From: an uncultured Bdellovibrionales bacterium
GTDB lineage: Bacteria; Patescibacteriota; Minisyncoccia; Moranbacterales; DUUL01
Reading direction: 5' to 3'
Length of the DNA stretch: 64,000 bases
NCBI GenBank assembly: GCA_964346295.1
Contig: CAYFUG010000004.1
Coordinates: forward strand, 532-64,531
In this document: piece after piece, positions 19,717 through 59,239 of the stretch
Layout of the letters: each line of letters opens with the position of its first letter
How positions within the stretch are numbered: the first letter of the stretch is position 1
Notes under the pieces: model-generated
Databases searched by the model: none
What the model saw: only the letters and a program-made list of their open reading frames with translations
What the model was told of the DNA's origin: nothing
Made by a program: the position numbers and the translations under genes

Positions 19717-19739
19717 TTTTTAATCCAGAATTTTAAACT

Positions 19740-24377: not shown

Positions 24378-24995
24378 TTGAAGCAAGGCTTTTTAGTTAT
24401 TGCTCATAATATCCGCAGTTGCTACAATGTTGGCTCGATTTTTCGTAGTGCGGATGCTTTGGGCGTGGAAAAGATTTATTTAACCGGCTACACTCCCAGA
24501 CCGGGTGTTTTGGTTACTTCCGATGCTGAAAGTGGTCTTGATAAATTAAGCTTTAAGGTAAATTCTCATTCCGATTCAAATTTAAGTCTCGGAGAAAGAA
24601 GAGGCCCCAAAACGAGCTTTACTGAGGCGCTAAAAGCTAAAAAAGATGCCAAAAAGATTGCTAAAACGGCTTTAGGAGCAGAAGAAGTAGTTGCTTGGGA
24701 ATACCAGAGGCAATTAGGACCACTGATTCAAAAATTGCAGTCGCAAGGGGTGCAAGTGGTAGCTCTGGAGCAAGCTTCTAATAGTCTAAAATTAACTGAT
24801 TTTAAGCCCAATTTTCCTTTGGCGCTGCTAGTGGGTAACGAAGTGCGAGGAATCTCTCCTCAAATACTGAAAAAAGTGGACAAAATCGTAGAAATCCCGA
24901 TGCAAGGAAAGAAGGAGTCCTTGAATGTTGGGGTGGCATTTGGAATCGCCGGTTTTTGGCTCCAAGCTGTTGATTTTGGTAAATTTCGTTGTTGA
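24378..24995 (+). CDS. SpoU/TrmH-family RNA 2'-O-methyltransferase
   Basis: LVIAHNIRSCYNVGSIFRSADALGV motif. The C-terminus FGKFRC-stop is supplied by the dispersed repeat. Confidence 0.7.
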   Translation: MKQGFLVIAHNIRSCYNVGSIFRSADALGVEKIYLTGYTPRPGVLVTSDAESGLDKLSFKVNSHSDSNLSLGERRGPKTSFTEALKAKKDAKKIAKTALGAEEVVAWEYQRQLGPLIQKLQSQGVQVVALEQASNSLKLTDFKPNFPLALLVGNEVRGISPQILKKVDKIVEIPMQGKKESLNVGVAFGIAGFWLQAVDFGKFRC

Positions 24996-25342: not shown

Positions 25343-28009
25343 GTGGAGAGACTTGTTGTCGATAGAAGTGAAGAGAAGAGAAACGGACCGGAAAGAAATC
25401 CGGGGTTTTTTCAGTTAGCTGCTTATCCAAAAGAAGATTGGGATTTGTTAAGGGCTGTGAATAAGGTGTTGTCGAAAGATAGTAGTCGAGTTTATGGTTT
25501 GCAGAGGGCTTTATTGGATTATCCCGAACTAGGGAACGAAGAGACAAAGGAGGTAATTTTAGAAAAGATGGAAGAAGAACTTTTAAGCATTTATTCTGAT
25601 GATTTAAGACTGGAAAATGGAATAAACTCGATAAAAGATGCTTTTGAGGGAATAAGGGGGATTTATTTAGGGAAAATAGAGACAGAGAAGGTTGTGATCG
25701 AGCGAGTCAACCAGCTTTACCCAGCGGAGTTGGAAGCCTTTGAGGATTTATTGGGCGACTTTATAGTTTATAAAAAAGTTTTACCTAAAGATGTTATTCA
25801 GGCAATTTACAGAAATAGGCTAGAGAAAATTGGAAATGTAAATCTTAATAATCTTTTTAGTTATGGAGATGTAGGCTTAGAAAAAGAGTGTTTAGGGGTT
25901 AATGAAAGAATTTTTGAAGCTCTAGAGGAGCTAGCCTTGTTTTCTGATATTTCCGAAGGTCAGAAAGCGGAACTTTTTCAGTCAGTGGCAAGGGGGTTAT
26001 TTGGAAGGGAAAAAAAGTTTTTTGTAGACCCAGAAAAGGCTTTGAGATTTGTAAGAGTCACTTTTCAAAGTCCAGAGACCAAGCGCTATGCCAAGCCACT
26101 TTTCATGAATTATTGGTGGGAGTGGGAGAATGCTATTGAAAAAATGCAGTCAGAAATTGATTTTGAAGATCAGAGCAAGGAGAATATTAGGAAAATAGCA
26201 GAGTTGGCGGAAATTTACGGGGCAGTTTACGGAGAATTGATAAAGAGGGGAATCGAACCTAATAATGATGGGGCAGTTTACATGTTGAATTTTATTAACC
26301 AGGCGGGAGGAGTAGACGATTTTTACCTTAACTTAAAGGTTAAGCAAGCCGTTTTTCTTATTCAGGCTGATGCTTGCCTTTATTATGAGGAAGGCGAGGA
26401 TTGGCAAAAGGAAGGAAGGGCGCAGTTGATTTATAGTGCGGCTCAAACTTTGGGAACTGATCTGCAGCTTAGTGGCGAGGAGCTGCAGCAATTTTTAACT
26501 GATATAAAAGGTTTTTTTGGGCAAAAATTAACTGCCGAAATTGAACCTCTTGTTAAGGGGCAGGTGGCAGCTCCGGGAGTAGAAGGGCATTTTGATGATG
26601 ATTTTGATCTGGTGCTACTGGAGGAGGAGAGAGGCAATGAAGGTGATAGGCTGAAGTTTAGCGAATTTATTAAGTTGAATTACTACGATGTTATTGAAGA
26701 GGGCGATTTTCTGGATTTGATGTTTATGCAAAATTTATTCATCAAGAAGCGAATTTCCCAGGAGTTAGGCGTGGCTTTGCATAACTTAGAGTTGAGAGCT
26801 CAGAATCAGTTTTTAAACTTCATTAAAAATGCCTCCCAGGAGAGAGTGAGACAAGTGGCAGAATTCGTAAAAAATCCAGCAGAAGAAGAGCAGCGCTTAA
26901 ACCGCCTGAGAGTCTTTCTTTCCTTGGAAGAGGGCCATTTTTCAGGAGATCAGCTATTGGACTTGCCTTCCAGGATTGATGCTGACCAAGCGCAGCAAGT
27001 TTTTGACCAGTATGGGAGACTGGTTCAAGACGCTTTTTCGGAGCAGTCGACCCTTCAAGAAGTGCTAAAGAATCCGGAGGATTTGGCCAAAATTGATCAA
27101 GAAAAAATCACTCAAAATTTGCTCTTCCGAGGCCAAAAAATCCTTCAAAGGCTAATTGAGTCTAGCGAGCCAGAGAGAGAGGCAGAAAGTGTTTTATCCA
27201 GCCTTTTAGCACAAAAATGGCAAATTCAACTAGCGGGAGCAGTTTTTAGGGAAGGGATCGAGGCTGGGATGAGTTTAGATGATTTAGAGGGTGGCAGAAT
27301 TGAGGTTTTAACCGTCCAAGACTTAATTCAAAAACCAGAATTGGTGGCTAAAATGAGGGATATTTATTCTAATAATTTCTCCAAAAAACCTGATTTGCAA
27401 GGAGCGGTTTTGCAAGGATTTGATCAAAAAATGACAGAAGGAGGCGTTAATTCGGAGTTTGCTTTGGCCTTTGTGGGCGAAGAATTGGTGGCTTTTAGCC
27501 GCAGTGATCATGTAGACGAAAAAACTCGCTATTTTGCTTCTCTAAACTCTTCTTATGGCGGTGCCAAGTTTGGAGAAGCTCTGAGGAGGAAAAGAGAGGC
27601 TCAGGTGGGAGAAAATTTTGATATTCGGGCTCATAGTGAGCCAGAAAGTGCCATGAGTACGCTGTATATTGGCCCAGAGGGAGGATTTATAGCCGATGGG
27701 GTAGAATTTAATTATCACAACACCGAGGCTAATTTATTCAGTATTACTAGACAAAAAACCCCGCCCAGTTACTATGCTTGGAGTAAGCCTCGAGAAGAGC
27801 TAGTCAAAGAGGCGAAAGAACTTGCGGATAGTGAGATAAGTAGCATTTCTCTAGAAAAGGGTAAGCCTCTGGTTTTAAGCCTCCAGGGGCTAGAAAATAC
27901 ACTAGTGGCACTAAAAACCCTACTCAATGAGCAGGGCGGCCAGTTGACCAATTATTGGTTTCAGGGCGGAAGATATTTTTTAGCTATAGAAAACCCTAAA
28001 TCAAGCTAA
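25343..28009 (+). CDS. large hypothetical protein (888 aa; start uncertain)
   Basis: Long uninterrupted ORF with no recognisable motifs. Starts with GTG at 25343; the alternative ATG near 25567 follows an AAGGAGG. Confidence 0.5.
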   Translation: MERLVVDRSEEKRNGPERNPGFFQLAAYPKEDWDLLRAVNKVLSKDSSRVYGLQRALLDYPELGNEETKEVILEKMEEELLSIYSDDLRLENGINSIKDAFEGIRGIYLGKIETEKVVIERVNQLYPAELEAFEDLLGDFIVYKKVLPKDVIQAIYRNRLEKIGNVNLNNLFSYGDVGLEKECLGVNERIFEALEELALFSDISEGQKAELFQSVARGLFGREKKFFVDPEKALRFVRVTFQSPETKRYAKPLFMNYWWEWENAIEKMQSEIDFEDQSKENIRKIAELAEIYGAVYGELIKRGIEPNNDGAVYMLNFINQAGGVDDFYLNLKVKQAVFLIQADACLYYEEGEDWQKEGRAQLIYSAAQTLGTDLQLSGEELQQFLTDIKGFFGQKLTAEIEPLVKGQVAAPGVEGHFDDDFDLVLLEEERGNEGDRLKFSEFIKLNYYDVIEEGDFLDLMFMQNLFIKKRISQELGVALHNLELRAQNQFLNFIKNASQERVRQVAEFVKNPAEEEQRLNRLRVFLSLEEGHFSGDQLLDLPSRIDADQAQQVFDQYGRLVQDAFSEQSTLQEVLKNPEDLAKIDQEKITQNLLFRGQKILQRLIESSEPEREAESVLSSLLAQKWQIQLAGAVFREGIEAGMSLDDLEGGRIEVLTVQDLIQKPELVAKMRDIYSNNFSKKPDLQGAVLQGFDQKMTEGGVNSEFALAFVGEELVAFSRSDHVDEKTRYFASLNSSYGGAKFGEALRRKREAQVGENFDIRAHSEPESAMSTLYIGPEGGFIADGVEFNYHNTEANLFSITRQKTPPSYYAWSKPREELVKEAKELADSEISSISLEKGKPLVLSLQGLENTLVALKTLLNEQGGQLTNYWFQGGRYFLAIENPKSS

Positions 28010-28877: not shown

Positions 28878-28906
28878 TTGACAATTTTTTAATAATATGC
28901 TACAAT
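28878..28906 (+). promoter_or_regulatory. sigma70-type promoter of GC island 2
   Basis: TTGACA, 17 nt, TGcTACAAT. Embedded in the TTGACAA...TTGTCAA palindrome. AT-rich UP-like region upstream. Followed by GTCAAGCTAAGAAAAGG. Confidence 0.65.
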
Positions 28907-29108
28907 GCCTTGTCAAGCTAAGAAAAGGGTAAAACTCCGAAGCTTGAAGAACTGAAAGGTTCTAGCCAAATAAGAATAGTTGGCTCTTAGTACATTATAT
29001 CGAGAATAACCACACAACACAAACCACAGGAAAGTTTCTTGCAAGGCTTTTCTAGAGGTGTTTTTTGTGTTGTGGAAACATTCTCTAGCAAGAGCCCTGC
29101 AAAAAACT

Positions 29109-32518: not shown

Positions 32519-32704
32519 CCCTTACCTTAGAATTTTTTTGATTTCTAGGCCCTCTCCATCAGGCCTCCTGCGAAGTTAGCAGGTTTTAAAAATTTGGATG
32601 GTAGTCCGAGCGGCGGAAATGACTCAAAACTATCCGCAAAATTAGCCCTGACAATCAGGGCCGGCCGAGGCAAGCGCAATGCCGCTTTAGCCTAAGAGGC
32701 CACC

Positions 32705-32836
32705 AAAAGGCCCGAAAGAGTCTGGCCAACGCGCTAAATCTTTCGGAGGGACGAACTTGTTGAACACAACATTTTCGTCCCCTCTACTAGCAACTTAATT
32801 TGAGACTTGATCTTTTATTGAGTTGCTTGAGAGAAT
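32705..32836 (+). repeat. 132-bp direct repeat, copy 1
   Basis: Near-identical (2-3 mismatches) to 34004..34136. Contains a GGGACGAA-cttgttgaacacaacatt-TTCGTCCC hairpin. Confidence 0.85.
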
Positions 32837-32924
32837 CTATTTTGAAAGGCGAGTTCTTTGAAATATATCCAAAGCTTCATTGTAATCTTTGGGTACTTCA
32901 ACCAAACCAGAAAAGGGGGATGCC

Positions 32925-33971
32925 ATGGGTAAATTTCAGGAAATCACACTGGAATTATTGTTGGAAAATGAAGTTTTGAGGAAGTATCTTCTCAAGGCAA
33001 GAATTGGTCCAGCTAAAAAAGGCGACGGTGCTTTTGTGGGGACTTATGATATTGCCCCGAAGGAGTTTCGGAGTTTTGGAATTGTTTTGCCCAGGGGCGG
33101 GATGATTATTCCAGGGGCAGATCCTGTCAAGTTAAAGGAAATGGTCAAGGAGCCTGAGCGCCGGCGTGAGGCGGAGGACTTGGCAAATCGTCGTGCTGTT
33201 GAAAAAGATTATCTCAATCAGGTGAAAGAGATAATTGCTGAAGCTGGCCTCACGGATATTGAAGTGGTGGAAGAAGACGGAGTGGACTTCCATAGTATCG
33301 GCGCCACCAGCTGGCACAAGAGCTTTTTGGTAAGAGAAGGAGAGAAAATCTTCAGTCTTCACAGCGAAGAGGAGCCGTATCGTGGCTTAGATGACGATGG
33401 TTCGTACGAGCCGTGGAGGACGGAGTTTACTCCGTTGGAAGAGGTGAAATCCTTCCTTGAAGAGGAGGCGCGTCTTGTTGGTCCGAGAAAAATGTTTGCT
33501 GATCGGATCAGGCGGCTTATTGATATAAGCCACAATGTTGGTCAGCAAGGGCCAGATGAAACTGGCTGGGATCGCCCTCGAGTGGAATTATTTTTGTACG
33601 ATGACTATAAAAAAGGCAGGGACTGGGGTTTTTTCGGTCATCGTTGTCAGGGTATCTCTTCGGCCCACAGGATTTACTATCGAAAAAAACTCTATGAGAT
33701 TACCGAAGAAGGCATTTCTCGCCTTGAGTATGAAATCGGAGAAAGGGAGGAGGCGCTAGAAGCAAGACGAGCGATGCTCAAAAGACTCTTCGAAGAGAAG
33801 GGCAGAGTTTTTGAGGAACTCAAAGAAGAGAAAGATTGCTATGCCGGAAAGTCACTGGCAACCGGCAAGGCAAAGTACGATGAGTGGACTGAAACGCGCT
33901 ACTTTCTCGGCGACACAGAAGTTACCGAGGAAGAGCGTGATTGGCTGAAGGGCTTACCTAAGGATAATTAG
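32925..33971 (+). CDS. hypothetical protein (348 aa) bracketed by the 132-bp direct repeats
   Basis: RBS AAAAGGGGGA then ATG at 32925. Charged soluble protein with no recognisable motifs. Confidence 0.55.
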   Translation: MGKFQEITLELLLENEVLRKYLLKARIGPAKKGDGAFVGTYDIAPKEFRSFGIVLPRGGMIIPGADPVKLKEMVKEPERRREAEDLANRRAVEKDYLNQVKEIIAEAGLTDIEVVEEDGVDFHSIGATSWHKSFLVREGEKIFSLHSEEEPYRGLDDDGSYEPWRTEFTPLEEVKSFLEEEARLVGPRKMFADRIRRLIDISHNVGQQGPDETGWDRPRVELFLYDDYKKGRDWGFFGHRCQGISSAHRIYYRKKLYEITEEGISRLEYEIGEREEALEARRAMLKRLFEEKGRVFEELKEEKDCYAGKSLATGKAKYDEWTETRYFLGDTEVTEEERDWLKGLPKDN

Positions 33972-34003
33972 TGGATAAGGCCCTCAAGACTCTTCAAATT
34001 TTC

Positions 34004-34136
34004 AAAAGGCCCGAAAGAGCCTGGCCAACGCGCCAAATCTTTCGGAGGGACGAACTTGTTGAACACAACATTTTCGTCCCCTCTACTAGCAACTTAATTT
34101 GAGACTTGATCTTTTATTGAGTTGCTTGAGAGAATT
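34004..34136 (+). repeat. 132-bp direct repeat, copy 2
   Basis: See copy 1. Confidence 0.85.
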
Positions 34137-34205: not shown

Positions 34206-34317
34206 TCTACTGCTTTTAGCTATTCAATTCCCCTAATCCCTCCTCCTTTGCTAAAGCTATGGTCGGCAGGCTTTTGTAAGGGGGTTGCTGAGCAGGGAAA
34301 GGCTAAGATCTCTTGAC

Positions 34318-34372
34318 TTCCTCCTTCGTCAAAACTTCGGAGGACAAGACGCTCGGGATGACAAAGAAAAAA
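34318..34372. repeat. dispersed repeat, A-type module copy
   Basis: tccttcgtcaaaacttcggaggacaagacgctcgggatgacaaag. Confidence 0.5.
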
Positions 34373-40024: not shown

Positions 40025-40882
40025 TTGATTTTTATGCATAATCAAGCGAGAGCAATGCAGGATTTTGAAATGCTAAGAGCACTTCAAGTAATTCAGCTCG
40101 ACTTAGGACCAAATCACTTGGTTGATTTGGGTTTTGTTCGAATTGTAATTTGCCCTTATGCGGATAATGAATTTTGGAACTTTGCAGTTTTTCAGGACGA
40201 AATCACATCATCTCAACTGAGGGAATTGGAGCAAAAATTTCAACAATTAGAAGAAGAGGCAGATAAGGACTTTGCTATTTGTGCTTCGGATAATCAGACT
40301 CAGGTTCTAAGACTAGTGAAGAAGACTGGCTACAAGAATATTCTGCACCGGTCGTTTTTTGTTAAAGACCTGGATGGATTTCAGGAAAGGACGCTTGATA
40401 GCCCTTTCGATAGTTTCAGTGAGAAGCTCCGTTTTGAAAAAGTTCAATCTGATCAGGGCTGGGAGGATTTTGTAAAAGTCTTTGATGAAGCTTTTAGGGA
40501 GGAAAATTCTGCCTCTCTTCATCCGGGGCCGATATATCTGGAGGTAATGGAAGAGGTCTGGCGTAAAGATCAGTCCAAGGGAGGCAAGATTGTTAATCAT
40601 CTCGTTTTGTACCAAGAGGGTGAGCCAGTGGCGGTAGCTTCTAATTTTAATTCTTTGCAGCATCGGATGAGTTATATCTCTAATGTAGGAGTGCATCCTA
40701 GGTTCAGAAAAAAGGGATTGGGAGGTCGGATAGTCAATTTTTGTCTGGCCGATTCTCAAGAATTTGGCAATGAGCAGGCAACCTTAGTAACAGAAAACAA
40801 CGCCGGCTTGAGAAGTTTCTATCGAGGATTGGGATTCCAGAATTTATTTGACTTTAGCTATTATGCCAAAAAATCCAATTAA
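40025..40882 (+). CDS. GNAT-family N-acetyltransferase
   Basis: C-terminal VGVHPRFRKKGLGGRIVNFCL acetyl-CoA binding motif. Confidence 0.65.
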   Translation: MIFMHNQARAMQDFEMLRALQVIQLDLGPNHLVDLGFVRIVICPYADNEFWNFAVFQDEITSSQLRELEQKFQQLEEEADKDFAICASDNQTQVLRLVKKTGYKNILHRSFFVKDLDGFQERTLDSPFDSFSEKLRFEKVQSDQGWEDFVKVFDEAFREENSASLHPGPIYLEVMEEVWRKDQSKGGKIVNHLVLYQEGEPVAVASNFNSLQHRMSYISNVGVHPRFRKKGLGGRIVNFCLADSQEFGNEQATLVTENNAGLRSFYRGLGFQNLFDFSYYAKKSN

Positions 40883-42125
40883 AAAGCCTAAGATATTGGT
40901 GGCGCTGAGCGGAGGGGTAGACTCGGCGGTGGCGGCCCTGCTTCTTCTGGAGCAGGGTTTTGAGGTGCAAGGGATTCATTTTTTGCTGAGTAGCGAGAAA
41001 TTGATTAGCGCAGAAAAAGTTCGGTTGATTGCTAATGAATTGGGGGTCGAGCTAGAAGTAAGAGATATTTCTCGGGAGTTTCAAAAAGAGGTGGTGGATA
41101 GTTTTGCTAAAACTTATCAAAAAGGAGCGACGCCTAACCCTTGCGTGATTTGCAACCGGAAGGTAAAATTTAAGCAGTTACTCCAGGCTCGCGAGGAGCT
41201 AGGCTGTGATCTAGTAGCCACCGGACATTACGCACGGATTGCTGCTGGTGAGGGCTCCCTGAAGGCGATCTCCACTCAATCCTCTCAATCTCTCCATCTT
41301 CGCCAGGACTACAGTCGACAGGCTCTACAAAAGGGGGAGACTGAGGGTTTTTTTCTTCAAAAGGCCAAGGATCAGCGCAAGGATCAGTCCTATTTTCTCT
41401 ATCGATTAACCCAGGAGCAGTTGCAATTTTGTCGCTTTCCCTTGGGGGAGCACTTCAAAGATTGGGTCAAGCAGCGGGCTAAAGATTTAAATTTAGGCCT
41501 AGAAAGGCAAGGAGAGTCCCAAGACATTTGTTTTTTTGAGCCAGAGGAAAGCCTGCGAGATTTTCTTGGAAGGCGCTCTAAACAAAACTTTACAGAAGCT
41601 TCAATAATTTCGGACAAAGGTGAGCCTTTGGGGAAATGCGAGGGTTTGGAGTTGTTCACGATTGGCCAGCGCAAGGGCCTAAATCTCAGTGGGGGGCCTT
41701 GGTATGTTTTGAATAGAGATTTCACCAAGCGGCAGCTGGTAGTCACTCGCGATTCGGAAAGCCCGGATTTTTGGCAAAAGGGAATTTTTATCGAGCAAGT
41801 CAACTGGATTAATCAATCTCCTCAGCCGGGAAAATGGTACGACTTGCAAATTCGTTATCAAGGAAAAGTTTATCAAGGGATGCTTGAGAAATTAAAAGAG
41901 GGGCTTCGAGGGCAGGGCGGGGGATATTCCGTCCCCACTCCTACGGGGGTTGCTCAATCCCCCCAGCCCCTCCTCCTTCGCCAGGACTACAGTCGACAGG
42001 CTTTACGAAAGGGGGAGCCTAGCTGGAAGGTTAGCTTGAAGGAGGCGGCCCGGGCGGTAGCAGCGGGGCAATCGTTGGTGGTGTATGAGGGTAGTCAAGT
42101 TTTAGGGGGAGGAATCATCTTCTAG
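40848..42125 (+). CDS. mnmA: tRNA-specific 2-thiouridylase MnmA with two in-frame repeat-derived insertions
   Basis: PP-loop LVALSGGVDSAVAA, NPCVICN, GHYARIA...KDQSYFLYRL, C-terminal SLVVYEGSQVLGGGIIF. About 60 extra residues arrive in two blocks that share the peptide LRQDYSRQAL. Confidence 0.85.
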   Translation: MTLAIMPKNPIKKPKILVALSGGVDSAVAALLLLEQGFEVQGIHFLLSSEKLISAEKVRLIANELGVELEVRDISREFQKEVVDSFAKTYQKGATPNPCVICNRKVKFKQLLQAREELGCDLVATGHYARIAAGEGSLKAISTQSSQSLHLRQDYSRQALQKGETEGFFLQKAKDQRKDQSYFLYRLTQEQLQFCRFPLGEHFKDWVKQRAKDLNLGLERQGESQDICFFEPEESLRDFLGRRSKQNFTEASIISDKGEPLGKCEGLELFTIGQRKGLNLSGGPWYVLNRDFTKRQLVVTRDSESPDFWQKGIFIEQVNWINQSPQPGKWYDLQIRYQGKVYQGMLEKLKEGLRGQGGGYSVPTPTGVAQSPQPLLLRQDYSRQALRKGEPSWKVSLKEAARAVAAGQSLVVYEGSQVLGGGIIF

Positions 42126-42261
42126 TTAGTAGTTTTTGATTTTTAGTTCTTAGTTAATTTCAGAAGGGAATAATTTTTTGGCGTTGCTAACTAAAAATAC
42201 ACAGCTATTGTCATTCCGACTGAAGCGAAGCGAAATGGAGGAATCTTAGCTGAAAAATAAT

Positions 42262-42330
42262 ATAAGATCCCTCGACTCCCTCCTTCGCCAAGGCTACGGC
42301 GGGCAAGGCGCTCGGGATGACAAACTAAGA
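42262..42330. repeat. dispersed repeat, A-type module copy
   Basis: ctccctccttcgccaaggctacggcgggcaaggcgctcgggatgacaaa. Confidence 0.55.
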
Positions 42331-42370
42331 ATTTTAGAAGCTATACTTTATTGGCAATACCAATTTTTTT

Positions 42371-42871: not shown

Positions 42872-43021
42872 TTTGATTTTATGAACGAGTTTTTTGAATT
42901 TTTTATCAAGCGATTGTTATGGGTTTGGATGCCGCTCTATGCACTGTATAGAGTCATTCTTGACTTTATTGAAGAGCGAGAACAGACCTGAGAGTTTTTT
43001 GAGTTGCTTTAATCAAGAAAT

Positions 43022-44218
43022 TTGACTTCAAAGAAAAAAAAACAGACCAGTTTTTTAGGGGACAAGAAGGTGGCTTTAGTCCACGATTTTTTGTTATACT
43101 GGGGGGGAGCGGAGGCCACTTTGCAAGTGTTGGCCAAAATGTTTCCTCAGGCGCCGATTTACACCCTGCTTCAGGATGAGCAGTTTACCAAAAAGCACTT
43201 CAGGGGGCGAGAAATCCGGACCTCGTTTTTACAGAAAATTCCCCGCTGGATCCGCAAAAAACACACTCGCTTATTGCCGCTAATGCCAACCGCCATTGAG
43301 TCGCTCAATTTGCGGGATTATGACTTGGTAATTTCCTCCTCTTCGGCTTTTGCCAAGGGAATTGTGGTGAAGCCTAAGACCACCCATGTTTGCTACATGC
43401 ACGCCCCTATGCGTTATGTCTGGGACTACTATCACCAGTATTTTCAAGAGCGCTTTGGCAATCGAGCTAAAATTTTTACCCGGACTTTTCTCAACTACTT
43501 GCGAACTTGGGATCGAGCCAGTGCCGACCGGGCTGATCATCTGGTTGCCAATTCTCGTTACACTGCTCGGCGAATCGAAAAATATTATCGTAGAGAATCC
43601 ATGGTGATTTATCCCCCAGTGGAGGTGGAAAAATTCGCCCTCAGTCCGGACAAGGCAAATTCCAGTATTTCTTCTAGCTCTGATTTGATAGAGAAGCAAA
43701 ATCAGGCCAGGAGAGGTAGCTATTTTTTGACAACGGGGCGCTTAGCGACTTATAAGCGGGTAGATCTTTTGATTGAGGCTTTTCAGAAGCTCAAGTTGCC
43801 GCTAGTGATAGTGGGTGATGGCCCGGAGCGTAAAAAGCTAGAGAAATTAGCCCAAGGGAACAGCAAGATAAAAATTTTAGGCTGGCAAAGTGAGGAAAAA
43901 TTAATTCGACTTTATCAAAATTCCCGGGCCTTTGTTTGTGCCACCGAAGATGATTTCAATATCACTTGCGTGGAGGCAATGGCAGCCGGAACGCCGGTAA
44001 TTGCCTTAAAAAAGGGCGGCGTGCAGGAAACAGTAATCGAAGGTCAGACGGGAATATTTTTCCAGGAGGCACGGTTGGAGCTAGTGGTGGATGGAGTGCG
44101 GCGGTTTATTGAAAAAGAGGCTGATTTTGACTCGGAGGTGATTCAGGCTCGAGCGAGGGAGTTTTCGAGGGAGAGATTTGAGAAGGAGATGCGAAAGTAC
44201 TTGACTTCCATTTTTTGA
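43022..44218 (+). CDS. glycosyltransferase family 4 (RfaG-like)
   Basis: EAMAAGTPVIALKKGGVQETVIEGQTGIFF GT4 signature. Confidence 0.8.
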   Translation: MTSKKKKQTSFLGDKKVALVHDFLLYWGGAEATLQVLAKMFPQAPIYTLLQDEQFTKKHFRGREIRTSFLQKIPRWIRKKHTRLLPLMPTAIESLNLRDYDLVISSSSAFAKGIVVKPKTTHVCYMHAPMRYVWDYYHQYFQERFGNRAKIFTRTFLNYLRTWDRASADRADHLVANSRYTARRIEKYYRRESMVIYPPVEVEKFALSPDKANSSISSSSDLIEKQNQARRGSYFLTTGRLATYKRVDLLIEAFQKLKLPLVIVGDGPERKKLEKLAQGNSKIKILGWQSEEKLIRLYQNSRAFVCATEDDFNITCVEAMAAGTPVIALKKGGVQETVIEGQTGIFFQEARLELVVDGVRRFIEKEADFDSEVIQARAREFSRERFEKEMRKYLTSIF

Positions 44219-44325
44219 AAATTTTGGTGTCAAAATCTCCGCTACTCCCTCACCGTAACTCTCAGTACGCCTCGCTCGCTGCTCGATTTCTCCTAAAAAT
44301 TTCCTAAAAAATGAAAGTCCTTAAA
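44219..44325 (+). repeat. dispersed repeat, B-type module
   Basis: ttttgaaaattttggtgtcaaaatctcc...ctcaccgtaactctcagtacgcctcgctcg...tcctaaaaatttcctaaaaaatg. Confidence 0.55.
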
Positions 44326-44768: not shown

Positions 44769-44924
44769 TTTTCAAACCCGCTTTCATCTTAGGGCTTCAG
44801 CGAGGCGCAGCAATTTTTAATATTTTAATGATTGAATTTTAAATAAGCAGAGCAGGAAAAACAAAAACAGCCCTTTTAGGGCTGCTTGAAAGCTTATTTT
44901 TATTCTAAATATAGCAAAGCAATA

Positions 44925-44998
44925 GAAGGGGGAACACTCGTTAAAATGTCTTCTTCTGCTATAATGTCGGTAGACATTTTAACGAGTGTTCCCCCTTC
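44925..44998. repeat. perfect palindrome: 27-bp arms, 20-nt loop containing TATAAT
   Basis: gaagggggaacactcgttaaaatgtct (44925..44951) and its exact reverse complement (44972..44998). Loop tcttctgctataatgtcggt. Confidence 0.9.
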
Positions 44999-45191
44999 TG
45001 TCAATACCCCTGAAAACAAAATTGTAATTGATAGCAGCAGTGAAATTTGTATTAAAAGTAACAACTTTGAAAGTTTCAGCATAAGTGATTTATTAGAAAA
45101 TATTAAGATTCTGATTAAGCATATTTTAGCATATTCAAGGGAAAAATCAAGGGTAAAAATCGATTCTAAGCGAGTAATTTGTCAAGCAAAG

Positions 45192-46835
45192 ATGAAAACA
45201 AAAACAAAAGCTAGTTCGCAGTCAGAAGAGGGGGGAATTTGGGATAGTTTTTGGGCTTGGGAGGCCCAGTTTAAAGAAGCTTTTTTTCGCAAAAGAAAAT
45301 TGCTGAGTGGGATGATTTTGGGACTGGTGCTGGTGGCCGGATTGCTTTTACGGCTAGGCTTCGCCCCTGCTAATCTGGCGGCAAATCCCGCTTCGGAGCC
45401 TTTTGTTTCCATTCTCCAAGAGCGCACTTTTTGGTACGATGAGGCGTTTACCGGAATTTTGCTAAAAGCCTCCTGGAAAGAGATGAATCAGATGATCTAT
45501 GACGATGTTCACCCTCCCCTTTATTACTGGTTGGCCAAGCCCTGGAGCGCAGCCTTTGACTATTCTCCGGTGGGGATTCGCTCTTTCTCTTTACTGTTTG
45601 GAATGCTGACAATAGTCTCTTTGTTTTGGATCGGATCGCGACTATTTGGCCCTAAGGCGGGTCGGTTGGCGGCAGCCTTGGCAGCCTTTTCGCCTTTTGC
45701 AGTGCAATATTCTCAAGAAGCTCGAATGTATGCCTTACTGGGCTTTTTGTTTTTGTGGGCTAGTTGGTTTTTCTATCGGGCTTTAGACAAAAATCGCCTC
45801 CAGGATTGGCTGATCTGGGGAGTTTTAGGCGGGCTTTGTTTTTACACTCACTACTTATCGTTGTTCTTTTTCGTTTCTTTTTATATTGCCTTTTATTTTT
45901 ACCAAGTGCTATTTCTCCAGGGCGGCTATTTTTGGTCCCTGTGGGGACAAAAGCGGCCGCTATTTTGGTTGGGAGTAGCGATAATAGGTGGCTTTTTTGC
46001 CAGTTGGTTGAAAGTTTTTTGGGTCCATTTTACCAAAACAGACGGGGACTTAGGCTGGATTGCGCCTTCTAACCTCAGTGATTTACCAGGAACACTGCAG
46101 ATTTTCCTTTTTGGTCATCCTCCGGGAGCAGGAGGCACGCCCGATGCTAATCCGTTAAAATTCTTTTTTGATCAAAGCTCGGTAGGACTTCTCGTCCTAG
46201 TGGCTATGGCGGTTTTGATTTTTTGCGCTTGGATTAAAAAGCGGCGTCGGCCGGAAATTCTAGTCTTGGGGACGATTTCCTTGGGCGCCTTACTGCTTTT
46301 AATTATCATCTCTCATTTTGACATTAAGTTTTATGTGGCCCGTTACATGATGCCAGCGGCAGTGATTTTTTACCTGCTTTTGAGTGGTTTGATAGTTTCT
46401 GCTACTCGGTGGCGACCAGGGCTGAAGGCAGTGATTTTTCTAGTGGCTTATTTGGCTCTCTTGTCAACTCTTCAACCGATTGACTACGCTCGGGGTTGGG
46501 CTAGGCTATATCAAGTGGATCAAGAAGTGGATTATCTCAAAAGCCGAATTCTGATAGCCAATGGTCCTTTTGAATACACTTCGGCTCGTTACTATTTTGG
46601 TCAAGAGCGAGTACGGTTTTTCAGCCCGGGTAATCTGGGAGAGGATTTTTCTGGTTGGGTGGTGGTGGGGAACCACAATCGCCTCAGTAGCAAAGAAGAG
46701 CTTCGGGCTAGCCCAAACTTTACAATTGTAGATCGGCAGTGTGAGTGGGAGGAGCTGAACTTAGAGGGCTATTCGATGAATATGAAGAGGTACGGGGAGA
46801 TGAGATTGTGCGTGCCGGGAACTTCCAAATTTTGA
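45192..46835 (+). CDS. GT-C glycosyltransferase (GT39/ArnT/PMT-like); start uncertain
   Basis: Many TM helices. DDVHPPLYYWL motif typical of GT39/GT83. The track ORF from 44886 would read through the palindrome, so the start is set at MKTKTK. Confidence 0.6.
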   Translation: MKTKTKASSQSEEGGIWDSFWAWEAQFKEAFFRKRKLLSGMILGLVLVAGLLLRLGFAPANLAANPASEPFVSILQERTFWYDEAFTGILLKASWKEMNQMIYDDVHPPLYYWLAKPWSAAFDYSPVGIRSFSLLFGMLTIVSLFWIGSRLFGPKAGRLAAALAAFSPFAVQYSQEARMYALLGFLFLWASWFFYRALDKNRLQDWLIWGVLGGLCFYTHYLSLFFFVSFYIAFYFYQVLFLQGGYFWSLWGQKRPLFWLGVAIIGGFFASWLKVFWVHFTKTDGDLGWIAPSNLSDLPGTLQIFLFGHPPGAGGTPDANPLKFFFDQSSVGLLVLVAMAVLIFCAWIKKRRRPEILVLGTISLGALLLLIIISHFDIKFYVARYMMPAAVIFYLLLSGLIVSATRWRPGLKAVIFLVAYLALLSTLQPIDYARGWARLYQVDQEVDYLKSRILIANGPFEYTSARYYFGQERVRFFSPGNLGEDFSGWVVVGNHNRLSSKEELRASPNFTIVDRQCEWEELNLEGYSMNMKRYGEMRLCVPGTSKF

Positions 46836-46995
46836 ACCCCGCACTAGAGCTTTGCTCAATGCGGGACAAGAATCTCGTTGTTGCCGGTTGCGTTTCGAAC
46901 TCATCGTACCTTTAGTGCGACTCGTCCGAAGCCTCACCCTTCTTTCCCACTTTCCGCTAAGGCTACAGAAGGGACAGATAAAACTTGAAAGTCCT
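46836..46995 (+). repeat. dispersed repeat, full-length copy (B+A modules)
   Basis: tccaaattttga overlaps the gene's SKF-stop. Then ...ctcatcgtacctttagtgcgactcg...ccgctaaggctacagaagggacagataaaacttgaaa. Confidence 0.6.
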
Positions 46996-47017
46996 GTCTT
47001 ATCCGGAAATATTCCAT

Positions 47018-47100
47018 TGATAAAATTTCCAGGAAAAACAATCAGTGGAGTGATATAAATTCCTTGATTTTTTATCAGTGGAGTGATAAAATTTCCAGGT
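47018..47100 (+). repeat. interleaved short direct repeats upstream of the ATPase gene
   Basis: tgataaaatttccagg occurs twice (47018, 47084). atcagtggagtgata occurs twice (47041, 47074). Confidence 0.7.
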
Positions 47101-47102
47101 AA

Positions 47103-48377
47103 ATGATTAATTCTAGAAAAATGATTTCAAGAGAAATTTATCCTAAGCTTTATAGTTGGGCGAAAAAGGGCAAGATTATTATTTTGAAGGGACCTCGTCA
47201 GGCGGGGAAAACGACCCTGATGAATTTTTTATTAGACAATCTTAAAAAAGAAGGTCAAAATACCGCTTATTTGTTGGCAGATGACATTGATAAGCAAGAG
47301 TTGTTTAAGTCTCCAGCCGCTCTGGAATTTTACTTGAGTCAGAAGTATAATTTTCCCGAAAAACATCTTTTTCTTTTTATTGATGAGTTTCAATACATTG
47401 ATCAGGCGGGACTCTTCATTAAAAACTTTTTTGATAAGCATCAGGGCCAGGTAAATTTAATTTTAAGTGGGTCTAGTTCCCTGGAAATCACTCAAAATCA
47501 AGAGTTTTTGACCGGTCGGGCGGTGGAGTTTGAAATGGGAACTGTTAATTTTCGAGAGTTTTTTAATTTTCGAGAAGGAACTCGGATTAAAAAATTTCCC
47601 CTTGAAAGCCAGGATGATTTAAGTAATTTTTATAAATCCTTTGAGAGTAAGCTAAGCCTCGCCTTAAAGAATTTTTTAGTTTTTGGGGGGTATCCTGAGG
47701 TGGTGGAAACCTCATTAGAGGAAGATAAGAAAGTAATTTTAAAGTCGATTGTTAAGAAATATTTAGAAAAGGATGTGGCGGGTTTTTTGCAAATCGAAAA
47801 TATCACTGCCTTTAACAACTTAACGAAGATTTTGGCTTCTCAAATTGGTAATTTAGTTAATATTAGCGAACTGGCTAATACGGTAAACTTATCCATTAAC
47901 ACCGTTAAAAGATATCTGGATGTTTTGCAAGGGACATATGTCTTTAGTCTGGTGCGACCATATGCTAAGAACATTCGCAAGGAGCTAAGCAAAATGCCTA
48001 AAGTTTATATTCAAGACTTGGGGGCAAAAAATTATCTTTTAGGTGATTACAAAGACAATTTATTTGGTGGCAAGGAAGTGGAAAATTTTGTTTTTTTAGG
48101 GATGGCTAATAATTTAAGTTCAGAAGGAGTTAACTTCTATCGAACCAAGGGAGGCTCAGAGGTCGATTTTATTTTAGAAAAAGAGGGTGGCTTGAATTTG
48201 ATAGAAGTTAAATATCGGTCGGTTTCCAAGATCAAAGAGCCTCTGGCATTCGCCAATTTTTCGGAAAATTATGGAGACAGAGTTCAAAACAAGATTGTGA
48301 TTTCCAAAGATGTTTTAAAAAAAGATGGGAATATTTACTTTATTCCGGCGGTGCTTTGGCCCTGGATAGAGTTATAG
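47103..48377 (+). CDS. AAA+ ATPase with C-terminal DUF4143-like domain
   Basis: Walker A GPRQAGKT, Walker B FIDEFQ. Confidence 0.7.
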   Translation: MINSRKMISREIYPKLYSWAKKGKIIILKGPRQAGKTTLMNFLLDNLKKEGQNTAYLLADDIDKQELFKSPAALEFYLSQKYNFPEKHLFLFIDEFQYIDQAGLFIKNFFDKHQGQVNLILSGSSSLEITQNQEFLTGRAVEFEMGTVNFREFFNFREGTRIKKFPLESQDDLSNFYKSFESKLSLALKNFLVFGGYPEVVETSLEEDKKVILKSIVKKYLEKDVAGFLQIENITAFNNLTKILASQIGNLVNISELANTVNLSINTVKRYLDVLQGTYVFSLVRPYAKNIRKELSKMPKVYIQDLGAKNYLLGDYKDNLFGGKEVENFVFLGMANNLSSEGVNFYRTKGGSEVDFILEKEGGLNLIEVKYRSVSKIKEPLAFANFSENYGDRVQNKIVISKDVLKKDGNIYFIPAVLWPWIEL

Positions 48378-48419: not shown

Positions 48420-49652
48420 ATGAAACAAACTAAAATTATTACCGAAAAGTGGGAGCAGGTGAGTCCAAGATTTATCTCTAGCTACCAAAAGACAGGAGGT
48501 TATCAGGATTTGGCTAAAGCCTTAAAAATGGGTCCGGATCAGGTACTTCAAGAGGTGTTAGCGTCTGGTCTGGCCGGTCGGGGCGGGGGCGGATTTCCTA
48601 CCGGAAAAAAGTGGCAAACGGCTTTAGAACAAAAAGCTTCGGAAAACTACTTTATCTGCAATTTGGATGAATCGGAGCCAGGGACTTACAAAGATCGCTA
48701 TTTAGCGGAAAGTAGTCCTCACCAGCTTTTAGAGGGCATTATGATTGCTTCTTTTGCCCTCAAGGTGAAGAAGGCTTACATTTACCTCAATGGAAATTTT
48801 CACGCCGCTCGGCAGTTGCTGCAAAACGCCCTTCAACAAGCCCAGGAAGCCGGATTTTTAGGAGAGAATATCTTGGAGAGCGGTTTTGATTTAGAAATCG
48901 AACTATTCGTGGGGGCGGGGGCCTATATTTGCGGAGAGGAATCAGCTTTGATTAATTCTATTGAGGGTAAAAGAGGGGAGCCACGGCGCCGGCCTCCTTT
49001 TGCTTGTGTTTGCGGACTGCATAATCGCCCTACGGTTGTGAACAACGCCGAAACTATTGCCAACTTGCCTTGGATAATCCAGAATGGCGGCAAGGCTTAT
49101 TCCCGGGTTGGCCTGCCAGATCAGCCGGGTACTAAACTTTTTTCCATCGGGGGAATGGTGCGTAACCCTGGTTTGTACGAGTTTCCTTTGGGCGTCAGTG
49201 TGCGAGAATTGGTTTACAAAGCGGGAATGGGCATGCGGCCAGGATTGGATTTTTGGTTTGCTCAAGTGGGGGGATCAGCCGGTCGCCTGGTAACGCGCAA
49301 TTTATTGGATGAAATTCCTAGTTATTCTCGCAAGGCTCGGATTTCGGTAGGATCGGGGGCGGTGCTGGTGGTAGATAAAAACCAGGACATCAAGGAACTT
49401 TTACTAGCTTGGAGCCGGTTTTTTGCTCGGGAGTCTTGCGGGCAGTGTGTTCCGTGTCGAGAGGGGACTTTCCGTTTGCAGCAGCTTGTAGAGCGCTTGG
49501 GGGGAGAAAATTTCAGTCAAGATGATTGGGAGGACATGCAGCGCATTATTTTCACTCTGGAGCGGAGTACTTTTTGCGCTTTAGGGAAGTTTGCAGCGGT
49601 GGCGATTAAGGATGCGCTGGAGCTGAAGTTGGTGGAGGCTTCCAAATTTTGA
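48420..49652 (+). CDS. NuoF-like NADH-binding FMN/Fe-S flavoprotein (complex I 51-kDa / HoxF-like)
   Basis: GLAGRGGGGFPTGKKW FMN motif. ESCGQCVPCREGT 4Fe-4S motif. The C-terminus EASKF-stop is supplied by the repeat. Confidence 0.8.
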   Translation: MKQTKIITEKWEQVSPRFISSYQKTGGYQDLAKALKMGPDQVLQEVLASGLAGRGGGGFPTGKKWQTALEQKASENYFICNLDESEPGTYKDRYLAESSPHQLLEGIMIASFALKVKKAYIYLNGNFHAARQLLQNALQQAQEAGFLGENILESGFDLEIELFVGAGAYICGEESALINSIEGKRGEPRRRPPFACVCGLHNRPTVVNNAETIANLPWIIQNGGKAYSRVGLPDQPGTKLFSIGGMVRNPGLYEFPLGVSVRELVYKAGMGMRPGLDFWFAQVGGSAGRLVTRNLLDEIPSYSRKARISVGSGAVLVVDKNQDIKELLLAWSRFFARESCGQCVPCREGTFRLQQLVERLGGENFSQDDWEDMQRIIFTLERSTFCALGKFAAVAIKDALELKLVEASKF

Positions 49653-49745
49653 AAATTTTGGTGTTGCAAGCTGCGTTTGGCACTCACCGTACCCTTCAGT
49701 ACGGCTCGCACCAAGCCTCGCTTGCGCCTAAAAATTTCCTAAAAT
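49653..49745 (+). repeat. dispersed repeat, B-type module
   Basis: ttgaaaattttggtgttgcaagctgcgtttggcactcaccgtacccttcagtacggctcgcaccaagcctcgcttgcgcctaaaaatttcctaaaa. Confidence 0.6.
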
Positions 49746-49815
49746 TTGGAAGCCTTAATCCAGCGGTTATTTTTAGTGGGAGATTTTTACAAGTTAACTT
49801 TTAAAATTTATTAAA

Positions 49816-50349
49816 ATGCAAAATCAGCCTAAAAATTGGCCTCAGGGGGGGGCAGAGCGAGGTAGCAGACAAGAGTTTTTTAATGCTCCAGAAAGAGAGC
49901 AGCAAGTAAGGGCTAAAAGATTAGATTCCTTGCTTGCTAGAGAGCGAGGAAATTATTTAGATTTTTGCCTGAATTTGTATAAATACCCTGATAGATTCAA
50001 AGGTAATTCTGAGAAAAATACAAAAATTTTTAATCAGCTTAGCTCTGGAAGTAGGATTTTAGAGAGGGCATTTGCTTTTTTTCTTGCTCAAAAAAGAAAT
50101 CAGGACACAAAAGGAGCCCATGAGGAATTGGGAAATATTATACAAAGTGATACTGGTGGTATTTCTGACCCTAATAATTTTCAGATTGATATCGATAAGG
50201 CTAAAGAAATGTTTCGATGGGGATTAGATTTGTATGTCAACGGAGGTGGTGAAAAAATTGGTAGGACACCTACTATCTCTGGAGGAGAGATTGATTCTTT
50301 GGTGGACGATATGGGGGAAATTTTAACAAAGGTAAATCAGTGGAGGTAG
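49816..50349 (+). CDS. hypothetical protein (177 aa)
   Basis: ORF with no recognisable motifs. Co-oriented with, and closely spaced to, the next gene. Confidence 0.45.
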   Translation: MQNQPKNWPQGGAERGSRQEFFNAPEREQQVRAKRLDSLLARERGNYLDFCLNLYKYPDRFKGNSEKNTKIFNQLSSGSRILERAFAFFLAQKRNQDTKGAHEELGNIIQSDTGGISDPNNFQIDIDKAKEMFRWGLDLYVNGGGEKIGRTPTISGGEIDSLVDDMGEILTKVNQWR

Positions 50350-55868: not shown

Positions 55869-55967
55869 GGAGTTTTAAATTTTGAAAGGATTCGAGTGAA
55901 TTATCAAGATACTTTTTGGAAAAATTGTTTAATTTGATTTTTTTAAACTAAAATACTACAATTCCTA

Positions 55968-56358
55968 GTCGCTTGGTCTAGCTTTGTCTAGATCAAGAGG
56001 AAAGTCTGGACACCAGCCGGCTTTCAATTGGAAGCCAGTTAAAAGGGTAATCGGTAACGCCGATCGGGCTCGATGTGAGTCGAGTCAAGGGATAGCGCCG
56101 CAGAGACAATACTAGTTAATGCTCTGCATTAACGAAAGGTGAAAAGTGTCGAGGGGCTCATTTCTTCGGAATTTGAGCTACTCGACTCGGCTATTGGCGA
56201 CAATAGTTTGTGGCAAGCCCTACCCGGTGCAAGGCCGTGTCTTCTCGTAAAAGAGAGGAAGTGCCGCTAAAGTTCAGCAGTGATGTTGAATGTAGATAAA
56301 TGACTAGGCCAATTTACTTTGGTAGATTGGTACAGAATCCGGCTTATTTTATCTAGTT
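55968..56358 (+). ncRNA. rnpB: RNase P RNA (bacterial type A-like)
   Basis: P4 strands AGAGGAAAGTCTGGAC ... ACAGAATCCGGCTTAT. Also conserved GGTAACGCC, AAAGGTGAAAAG and GGCAAGCCC...GCAAGGCC elements. The ends are approximate. Confidence 0.65.
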
Positions 56359-56658
56359 TTCAGTTAGTAGTTTTCAGTTTTTAGGCCGCATGGAGGCAGC
56401 GCAGGTTATAGAAGCGAGTCCTTTGTAAAAATCTCGAGCGTTGTTTACAGCTTTCTTTATTAGTAGAACACCTCTATTTTTCTTCATGAGGCATTTTGTC
56501 TCCTATATAAGGCAATAAACGCCGTCATTAAAACTGGAGCGGTTTGAAATTGAAATTTAAAAATGTAAACAACGCTAAGGAATCTTACAAGTTATTTCTT
56601 ATCTTGAATTTTCTGGTGTAGTATATGCTGAGCTAAGATAGAAAATAAAATCAAAAGA

Positions 56659-58837: not shown

Positions 58838-58859
58838 ATTGAGAAGAACTTCCAGATTT

Positions 58860-58960
58860 GGCGAATCTCGATGTTACTCGCTGCGTTTAGTACTCACCAT
58901 ACTTCTTAGTACGCCTCCCACTAAGCCTCACTTGCACCTAGAGCTTCACTCAAATCTGAA
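58860..58960 (+). repeat. dispersed repeat, B-type module
   Basis: gctgcgtttagtactcaccatacttcttagtacgcctcccactaagcctcacttgcacctagagc. Confidence 0.55.
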
Positions 58961-59119
58961 AGTTTTAAAGTAAGCTGTTTATTTTGTCATGGGTAATTTT
59001 AGCACATTTATATTTTTTGTAAACTTTTAAGATTACATTTTTTAGGCTTATTTAATTATTTTATCTTTATTGAGTTATTTTTTAAAGTAACATTTTCAAT
59101 TTTAGTGTAGTTTTGATTA

Positions 59120-59148
59120 TTGACAAATATTAATTATTATGCTACAAT
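59120..59148 (+). promoter_or_regulatory. sigma70-type promoter of GC island 3
   Basis: TTGACA, 17 nt, TGcTACAAT. Within the TTGACAA...TGTCAAGCTCAGAAAAGG palindrome. About 150 bp of very AT-rich sequence upstream. Confidence 0.65.
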
Positions 59149-59239
59149 GCTCTGTCAAGCTCAGAAAAGGTTCAGATTCGTGGGTTTTGATTGTTGGAAT
59201 AATTTTGAGATCCGGAAAAAGGCTTAAAAAGCTTTTCTC

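Follow-up and report, generated by a model that had tools for sequence, protein, structure and literature searches.

Are the repeated sequences found at the 3′ ends of genes in this Patescibacteria contig one mobile family, and how do they come to supply stop codons to the genes upstream? The window, by which we mean the whole stretch of 64,000 nucleotides (nt) analysed here (contig CAYFUG010000004.1, positions 532 to 64,531), has a G+C content of 42%, carries nearly all of its genes on the + strand and shows a positive GC skew along its whole length. It corresponds to Ga0153774_1000134 of a JGI microbial-mat metagenome, ENA and Logan assemblies contain identical copies, and look-ups of identical proteins gave the same strain only. 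The original prediction had described a single family of about 200 bp with ten or more copies, composed of two modules, A and B, and reminiscent of repetitive extragenic palindromic (REP) sequences and Rickettsia palindromic elements (RPE). The repeats at the sites that it listed are significant, but they are not one family: repeat finding recovered several intergenic repeat families, the 12 listed sites sort into different groups, and A and B belong to separate elements. The B module is a discrete element of about 124 nt, not 200 bp, that forms an imperfect hairpin over its entire length. We call it the rod.

A covariance model, R1, was built from the five full rods of the window, which align over about 124 nt. 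Applied to the window, R1 returned these five at 115-135 bits on the + strand and, elsewhere, a core fragment alone (46886-46938, 27 bits). Besides the full copies, the window contains one long degenerate rod, one composite rod and one solo 5′ arm. All lie on the + strand, at a density of 5-7 rods per 64 kb:

49634-49757, + strand: full rod, 135 bits; fold -55 kcal/mol, z = -7.4; a NuoF-like gene reads 6 codons into its 5′ arm.
44200-44322, + strand: full rod, 115 bits; z = -3.6; the stop TGA of a GT4 gene (44216-44218) lies inside the 5′ arm.
24962-25084, + strand: full rod, 122 bits; z = -7.1; the last 11 codons and the TGA (24993-24995) of a SpoU gene lie in the 5′ arm.
24122-24265, + strand: full rod, 119 bits; starts 4 nt after the TAG of a gene of 93 amino acids (aa).
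58844-58967, + strand: full rod, 115.5 bits; z = -3.4; in a divergent intergenic region.
23298-23468, + strand: degenerate rod of 171 nt with its own 21-bp outer stem; -43.9 kcal/mol, z = -5.7; below the R1 threshold.
23483-23505, + strand: solo 5′ arm (GGCTTCCAAATTTTGAAAATTTT), the rest of the element being absent; repeat family D8; 100% identical over 23 nt to 49637-49659, E = 9e-7.
46822-46998, + strand: composite degenerate rod, corresponding to the flagged copy 46836-46995; core 27.3 bits, E = 3e-4.

Low-complexity A/T sequence is excluded as the source of the similarity, since a BLAST search of the window with copy 49634-49757 gave E values of 3e-19 (44205), 2e-15 (58849), 3e-13 (24122) and 3e-7 (46871). 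RNAalifold predicted one long imperfect hairpin for the five full copies, with 38 pairs, 16 of which show two-sided, pair-preserving changes. Single-sequence folds of rods gave z values from -3.4 to -9.6. The hairpin comprises about 50 bp with conserved internal loops and is closed by the apical stem CCGUAC-N6-GUACGG. The CCGTAC/GTACGG hairpin that had been noted in the B module is therefore present, but it is merely the apical part of an element that pairs from end to end.

The degenerate copies retain parts of this architecture. The 171-nt rod has the SecDF stop TAG (23300-23302) in its stem base and a core remnant, TCGTCACCGTAGCTTAGGTTAC, at about 23366-23387. The composite rod begins with a 5′ arm (46822-46838) that contains the stop TGA of a PMT_2 gene (46833-46835), continues with a nested small hairpin (46839-46868), the core (46886-46938) and an inserted A-core module (46940-46990), and closes with the tail of a 3′ arm (about 46981-46995), paired to the 5′ arm. 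By BLAST it is similar to copies 49654 and 58863 (E = 3.5e-7). Its outer stem is kept, and its overall fold is not significant (z = -1.6). The 5′ end of rod 58844 lies 7 nt from the start codon of a minus-strand TrmB-family gene.

Short, G+C-rich, perfect hairpins nested in rod arms were seen at 24203-24223 and 46839-46868 of the window and at about 2218-2238 and 3000-3022 of L162, a contig from a close relative; their sequences are CCTGCCTG-TCGG-CAGGCAGG and CCCCGCA...TGCGGG. The hairpin at 24203-24223, of 21 nt, lies in the 3′ arm of rod 24122, one of three rods, at different loci, that have it in the same place.

The rod is not confined to the window. One genome per GTDB species was scanned with the apical pattern TCACCGTANNNNTNAGTACGNCTC, which occurs in at least 111 stretches of these genomes; by our calculation about 17 would be expected by chance. 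R1 gave 81 + 29 matches in the pattern-selected loci, nearly all full-length and mostly 117-129 nt long. The pattern matches come from many classes of Patescibacteria, Nitrospirota, uncultured Gammaproteobacteria, Wenzhouxiangella, Bdellovibrio, Acidobacteriota, Acidimicrobiales, Clostridia and metagenome-assembled genomes (MAGs) of Bacillota; the R1 matches span Patescibacteria classes, Nitrospirota, Gammaproteobacteria, Clostridia, Acidimicrobiales and others. The conservation of the apex in this set is partly by construction, the scan pattern having been drawn from it; the R1 matches include copies outside the pattern selection, and the apical stem covaries in these too. Occurrence is patchy: no rod lies in the 46.5 kb covered for three relatives that share about 60% aa identity, and a fourth relative contains one. 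Viral contigs gave 0 matches to the rod core, distant BLAST searches of a plasmid collection with a window rod and a Wenzhouxiangella rod gave no match, and a metagenome scan with the 20-mer of the window-type 5′ arm gave 39 matches, of which the model recognised 0 as rods.

The hairpin is supported by covariation in this wider set. In the alignment of 81 copies, which was fitted to R1, 86% of the cells are paired, compared to 54% after shuffling, and two-sided changes occur at each of the 38 pairs. These copies reach a covariation score of 0.69, compared to 0.16 for the shuffles and 0.09-0.13 for slid partners. An independent analysis of 32 copies by MAFFT and RNAalifold returned the same structure, with 29 of 33 pairs compensated. 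Finally, the 40 most similar copy pairs contain 303 compensated double changes against 141 one-sided breaks.

Two Wenzhouxiangella loci (L022, L047) contain longer rods, of about 175 nt, that are G+C-rich and have perfect outer stems of 15-20 bp. Judging from the sequences collected, the family seems to adapt to the base composition of its host and to vary in length. The idea that the outer stem derives from the target, by insertion into existing terminator hairpins, was rejected: the same arm, ACTTCCA.ATTTGG, recurs behind unrelated genes and in other genomes.

As had been predicted, four open reading frames (ORFs) of the window end inside the B element. They are 44886..46835 (PMT_2, ...GTSKF-stop), 48420..49652 (NuoF-like, ...EASKF-stop, with its TGA at 49650-49652 in the arm of rod 49634), 43022..44218 (GT4, ...LTSIF-stop) and 24378..24995 (SpoU, ...GKFRC-stop). 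The SKF or KFRC tails proposed for all four are found in three of them; the GT4 protein ends in SIF, not SKF. For two further copies the stop lies inside the first base pairs of the element, or 4 nt before it. Rods start at or after the stop, or replace merely the last 4-11 codons.

The C-termini were compared with those of the nearest relatives, represented by contigs L117, L119 and L162, in which the NuoF-like and SpoU proteins are 72-87% identical at the aa level. Relatives end differently for three of the four proteins. The NuoF-like protein ends in ...KLVTR-stop in the relative and in ...KLVEASKF-stop in the window, and DNA homology with L117 stops at 49633, one base before the rod. For PMT_2 the two ends are ...LCAPKRD-stop and ...LCVPGTSKF-stop; the protein alignment diverges after LC(A/V)P, which is where the element starts, and the relative's gene end is followed by a repeat of the type found at 44770 of the window. 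SpoU ends in ...GFVIGRAFKFLEL-stop (...GRAFKFLEL-stop) in the relative and in ...GFWLQAVDFGKFRC-stop in the window, with DNA homology to L119 stopping at 24956, five bases before the element. Remodelling of the GT4 terminus is not claimed, because the tail of its ortholog (...FLSKIG-stop, compared to ...YLTSIF-stop) is equal in length and similar. L162 carries a small REP-like hairpin at the GT4 site in place of rod 44200.

The PMT_2 ORF 44886-46835 also contains, in its 5′ part, a 72-nt palindrome (44926-44997) whose arms, about 29 bp long, are near-perfect inverted copies of each other (GGGGGAACACTCGTTAAAATGTCT...). PMT_2 itself probably begins downstream of 44886, the gene call in another assembly being 547 aa.

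Anchoring to stop codons extends beyond the window. Counting ORFs of at least 100 aa and measuring their stop end from the first base of the element, a co-oriented stop falls between -10 and +40 nt from the element 5′ end in 52 of 112 non-redundant copies (46%). The mirror test, which counts convergent ORFs ending at the 3′ end, gave 9/112 (8%). The mode of the stop position is at -1..+3, with a second cluster at +9..+12. Patescibacteria rods share the orientation of the gene upstream, and their first bases fall on its stop codon or a few nucleotides from it. Rods, like genes, lie mostly on the G-rich strand (62 vs 12). Lagging-strand cases, including one in L118, still follow the gene orientation; they are too few to separate replication from transcription by GC skew.

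Comparison of copies was informative about mobility. Homology between copies of different genomes, at about 80%, stops at the element borders, and resemblance is higher within a genome (54% identity) than between genomes (41%). Two L162 rods at other loci match rod 24122 at 83-86% identity and have the same derived 21-nt nested hairpin, so that this subfamily occupies three non-orthologous loci across the window and L162. The Nitrospirota subfamily comprises near-identical copies in unrelated flanks, at least 12 of them in one MAG (Nitrospiria D_2_bin.51). Here the rod forms part of a composite transposable element of the miniature inverted-repeat class (MITE), about 195 nt long, consisting of a small hairpin (ATTCCGCGATTGCGGAAT), the rod and a second small hairpin (GATCAATCGCTGATC):

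L017, L027, L044, L049, L050, L055, L059, L069, L079, L096 and others: loci of the Nitrospirota composite MITE in the Nitrospiria MAG D_2_bin.51 and relatives.

Target-site duplications of 5-6 bp flank 9/15 of these copies (mean 3.4, compared to a null of 1.04 +/- 0.32). On this evidence the Nitrospirota subfamily is freshly amplified and has spread by ordinary transposition.

We propose that the rod is a non-coding, non-autonomous palindromic mobile element, MITE- or REP-like, which has spread within genomes and between phyla and likely exerts an effect as a hairpin in the 3′ untranslated region (UTR). We assign this reading a probability of roughly 0.6. In Patescibacteria the rod would move by DNA transposition or by copying, with an enzyme acting in trans. 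Its tight placement at stop codons could reflect a target preference, deletion-driven compaction or both. In genes that have lost or overrun their native stop, the ORF reads into the 5′ arm up to the arm's own TGA (TTTTGAAAA or GTTGTTGA), which results in the ...SKF, ...SIF and ...KFRC tails. As the first part of the transcribed 3′ UTR, the long hairpin may act on the mRNA, for example through 3′-end protection, as an RNase III-type processing site or as a barrier between cistrons, and such an effect may explain why rods are tolerated in tiny genomes. On such an RNA effect the mismatch pattern and the gene-orientation bias point opposite ways.

Several findings weigh against this proposal. Among 106 Patescibacteria-type copies, no target-site duplication of at least 4 nt was detectable at any boundary offset; a 2-bp TA duplication would be indistinguishable in the A/T-rich flanks. 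No transposase domain was found among 20 window ORFs scanned, and no autonomous partner was found; likewise, neither rod halves nor the Nitrospirota terminal hairpins flank a larger ORF in the fetched loci. An autonomous insertion-sequence partner in the Nitrospiria MAG would have the ends CCCTCATTCCGCGATTGCGGAATGAG ... CCCAAGATCAATCGCTGATCTTGGG. The classical MITE pattern is reversed, since the outermost bases, the would-be transposase site, are the least conserved and the apex the most. Window copies are just 51-70% identical, so that no recent burst is visible in the window. The relatives do not offer clean empty sites: the corresponding gene ends of L117 and L119 have short hairpins or solo arms with the look of decayed rods, which suggests that some copies are old residents and not recent insertions, although these remnants do not fold significantly (z -1.2 and +0.4). 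A purely selfish DNA palindrome would not be expected to show so strong a gene-orientation bias. Moreover, in well-paired columns G.U/U.G mismatches are not favoured over A.C/C.A mismatches (44 vs 74, + strand). This lack of wobble preference weakens an RNA-level role and suggests a DNA-level hairpin. The pattern is unlike that of typical functional RNAs and fits either a DNA-level hairpin or homogenisation of the arms; single-stranded DNA and arm homogenisation give the same outcome in this test.

The orientation bias counts in favour of a rival explanation, that the rod is a host-selected, cis-acting RNA structure of the 3′ UTR, such as an unconventional terminator, a 3′-end stabiliser, a processing site or a translation-termination-coupled signal. 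The stop would then have to sit in the hairpin base, where the terminating ribosome opens the hairpin, and copying would be secondary to function. We consider this explanation possible but unlikely. Co-orientation with the upstream gene is strict and holds for a few lagging-strand genes too, and the stop peak at element positions -1..+3 is sharp. The structure is kept in sequences that have diverged by 30-50%; its internal loops are conserved, and two alignment positions hold conserved G.U pairs. The density of rods is high for a streamlined genome (see above), and the decayed copies in relatives may still form hairpins, despite their z values. The mismatch counts, taken on the transcribed strand, nevertheless run counter to an RNA function. 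A U-tract follows the rod in just 13/113 copies (24/113 in the mirror test), and terminator and promoter consensus scans around rods gave background levels. Rods are absent from related genomes and are lost or decayed at orthologous sites. Finally, the Nitrospirota copies are not stop-anchored and have target-site duplications, and window copy 58844 lies in a divergent promoter region.

A bolder formulation, distinctly unlikely in our view, would make the rod a pan-bacterial, stop-anchored DNA-hairpin signal for recombination or insertion (attC-like cassettes without a classical integron), or a new class of termination-coupled 3′-end element across phyla. If either the cassette or the termination-coupled reading were true, a new mechanism and not just a new repeat would be at hand.

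Gene content differs between the window and its relatives immediately 3′ of rods at three places. In L162 (2108-3522) a conserved 36-codon ORF is followed, immediately behind its stop, by a block made of a rod, a VTT gene, a second rod and a PNPOx gene; at this place the window has just 30 nt (42992-43021). A window-only gene of 177 aa (49816-50349) lies just 3′ of rod 49634, where L117 carries different genes or no gene, and a window-only AAA_14/DUF4143 gene (47103-48377) lies 3′ of the composite rod, where L117 has PQ-loop genes. As the relatives' contigs are short, a gene absent from them may lie elsewhere. These differences are compatible with rods as recombination hot spots and, speculatively, with cassette-like units. 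The 36-codon ORF itself (MNEFFEFFIKRLLWVWMPLYALYRVILDFIEEREQT; window 42881-42991) is conserved in L162, where a rod starts in its stop codon.

One could accordingly regard the rod as a DNA-hairpin recombination site of the attC type or of the HUH- or tyrosine-recombinase type, with cassettes of a rod and its downstream gene landing at gene ends. Covariation without wobble preference fits a DNA hairpin, and the size and imperfect-hairpin shape recall chromosomal attC repeats. However, the attC R′′ (RYYYAAC) and R′ (GTTRRRY) boxes occur in 0/113 copies on either strand, no integrase or recombinase was seen among the scanned window ORFs, and the inserted blocks do not have rods at both sides. 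Many rods, furthermore, lie between housekeeping genes in conserved order (SecDF, the 93-aa gene, SpoU). We regard such a site as highly improbable. Chance similarity of A/T-rich intergenic DNA, or of ordinary unrelated terminator hairpins, could be suspected from the A/T-rich outer arms and the 39 rod-free metagenome matches to the 20-nt arm pattern, but is refuted by E values down to 3e-19, model scores up to 135 bits, more than 110 copies elsewhere and covariation that passed both controls.

If the rod is a mobile palindrome, known systems offer several points of comparison. It shares with MITEs its small non-coding nature and its multiple dispersed copies (5 full + 3 partial in 64 kb, >110 elsewhere). 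It also has the terminal inverted repeats of a MITE, being an inverted repeat from one end to the other, but its terminal 3-6 bp vary among copies. ERIC/IRU (about 127 bp, enterobacterial), Correia/NEMIS, Bacillus bcr1 and Coxiella QMITE2 are alike in being imperfect palindromes of about 120-130 nt with a long hairpin and in having many copies scattered over intergenic DNA that is transcribed, frequently within 3′ UTRs. Effects of such elements on mRNA decay or through RNase III cleavage are known. Each of these families belongs to one genus or family, whereas the rod spans phyla; ERIC, for instance, occurs in Enterobacteriaceae and Vibrionaceae, a different host range. No sequence relation was seen; for ERIC the comparison covered its primer regions. 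The rod further differs in that its apex, not its termini, is most conserved, in its strict gene orientation and stop anchoring, and in that Patescibacteria rods show no detectable target-site duplication, of TA or otherwise. ERIC has been described at the 3′ ends of Yersinia genes, Correia elements are cleaved by RNase III, and QMITE2 occurs mainly in 3′ UTRs (PMC10969869).

The likeness to REP and RPE sequences holds to the extent that the rod is a dispersed palindrome at gene 3′ ends that supplies stops and alters C-termini; the defining features of the two families were absent. Like REP/BIME and REPIN sequences, rods are extragenic palindromes at gene 3′ ends without target-site duplication, and REPIN hairpins are about 100 nt long. 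REPs are known to stabilise the mRNA upstream of them and, when they lie no more than about 15 nt from a stop, to reduce translation through trans-translation. The rod is much longer, at about 124 nt, and GTAG occurs near its 5′ end in 9/113 copies and CGTC in 4/113; for comparison, REP units are described as 20-40 nt with a GTAG or CGTC head (PMC3733652). REPINs conserve their distal REP ends, whereas the rod conserves its apex and its distal ends least. The 20 scanned ORFs of the window, which covers 64 kb of the source genome, include no RAYT gene. RPEs are also palindromic repeats that alter proteins, as with the four C-termini that end in rods here, but their insertions fall in frame within ORFs and they occur in Rickettsia only (PMC10969869). 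The rod sits at or after the stop, and its host is a Patescibacterium; the A-core family described below is RPE-like but not palindromic.

Chromosomal attC repeats of 120-126 nt, such as VCR, resemble rods in that they form imperfect hairpins, about 120 nt long, that directly follow ORFs and share a single orientation, with structure conserved above sequence and gene-content differences beside the sites. Stop codons often lie inside attC sites. Apart from the missing boxes and integrase, the rod differs in that its apex is conserved, compared to the variable terminal structure of attC, and in that its neighbours are mostly housekeeping genes. An intrinsic terminator would have a short G+C-rich stem and a U-tract, and a pattern scan finds nothing of this kind at rods. 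With Rfam 15, the sole match in the window at the gathering threshold is RNase P RNA (55953-56363), a scan of 23200-25400, which contains two full rods, gave noise alone at E <= 10, and a tRNA/tmRNA scan found none. No description of the rod was found in the searchable literature, and it is absent from the reference libraries searched. In the way it works the rod is like structured repeats of the ERIC, Correia, REPIN or QMITE type; its unusual features are cross-phylum spread, apex-centred conservation and oriented stop anchoring.

Patescibacteria (the candidate phyla radiation) have genomes of about 1 Mb that are regarded as highly streamlined. Despite this streamlining, a structured 124-nt repeat occurs roughly every 10 kb in this contig, on stop codons. 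A covariance model could serve to annotate this widespread, unannotated element, to remove spurious small ORFs and to correct gene ends. Rods also provide a natural system for studying what brings palindromic elements to gene ends and at which level, DNA or RNA, they act, and are a possible marker of gene-content flux in uncultured lineages.

The A module is a separate, non-palindromic and lineage-specific repeat family. Its 17-nt A-core, YTTYGCYARRGCTWCRG, has 11 matches in the window, compared to 1.15 expected; nine of the matches lie on the + strand. The strict module occurs twice, at 25130-25180 and inside the composite rod. Matches to the A-core were found in the strict module, in repeat types D4 and D6 and in one copy (19751) of a third repeat type, whose copy at 44770 has no match. 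The listed sites 6086, 34318 and 42262 correspond to D4, and 19740 and 44770 to the third type:

25130-25180, + strand: strict A module (A-core + GGGACAGATAAAACTTGAAA), about 50 nt downstream of rod 24962; 96.6% identity over 29 nt, E = 3e-8.
42263-42331, 6079-6147 and 34304-34372, + strand: A-core family, D4 type, from repeat finding; fold z about +1.
41275-41342, 41953-42020 (in frame in mnmA) and 34223-34290 (intergenic), + strand: A-core family, D6 type, from repeat finding.
44770-44850, + strand: third repeat type, which begins at the upstream gene's TAA; a second window copy lies at 19717-19790 (BLAST of L117 against the window).

No A-core repeat folds better than shuffled sequence. The third type, of which L117 also has copies, is not a hairpin. 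The A-core motif is absent from all other-lineage loci and present only in the close relative of the window. The nesting of the A and B families at 46822 and their adjacency at 25084 are thus coincidental. The A-core family behaves in an RPE-like manner, with in-frame insertions in the housekeeping enzyme MnmA. The window MnmA (40848-42125) has 425 aa, compared to 350 aa in L118 and 353 aa in L162. In protein alignments two in-frame segments are extra, one of about 30-34 aa (at about 41235-41368) and one of about 38-40 aa (at about 41889-42023), and both encode L(H/L)LRQDYSRQAL(Q/R)KGE, the translated D6 repeat.

Small hairpin repeats of the form TTGTCATYCCG...GGRATCTTA occur at 42202-42245 and 42263-42331 of the window and at 4775-4810 of L162, and in L162 the GT4 stop is directly followed by one. 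Similar hairpins form the ends of the Nitrospirota MITE (TCATTCCGCGAnnGCGGAATGA), and these repeats may represent a widespread REP-like unit.

The window contains further repeats. A promoter-like repeat consists of TTGACA, a spacer of about 17 nt, TATGCTACAAT and then a conserved GTCAAGCTAAGAAAAGG:

9046-9105, 9128-9187, 28878-28937 and 59120-59179, + strand: promoter-like repeat, four copies; also present at about 1630 in L119.

A 133-nt direct repeat (32704-32836 and 34003-34135, 98% identical) flanks ORF 32889-33971 (360 aa, no Pfam match), and each copy holds the hairpin GGAGGGACGAA...TTCGTCCCCTC. Three tandem units with a 33-nt period (47018-47128) lie upstream of the AAA_14/DUF4143 gene. 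Finally, an operator-like 33-nt doublet at 7573-7638 overlaps the start of gene 7623-8957.

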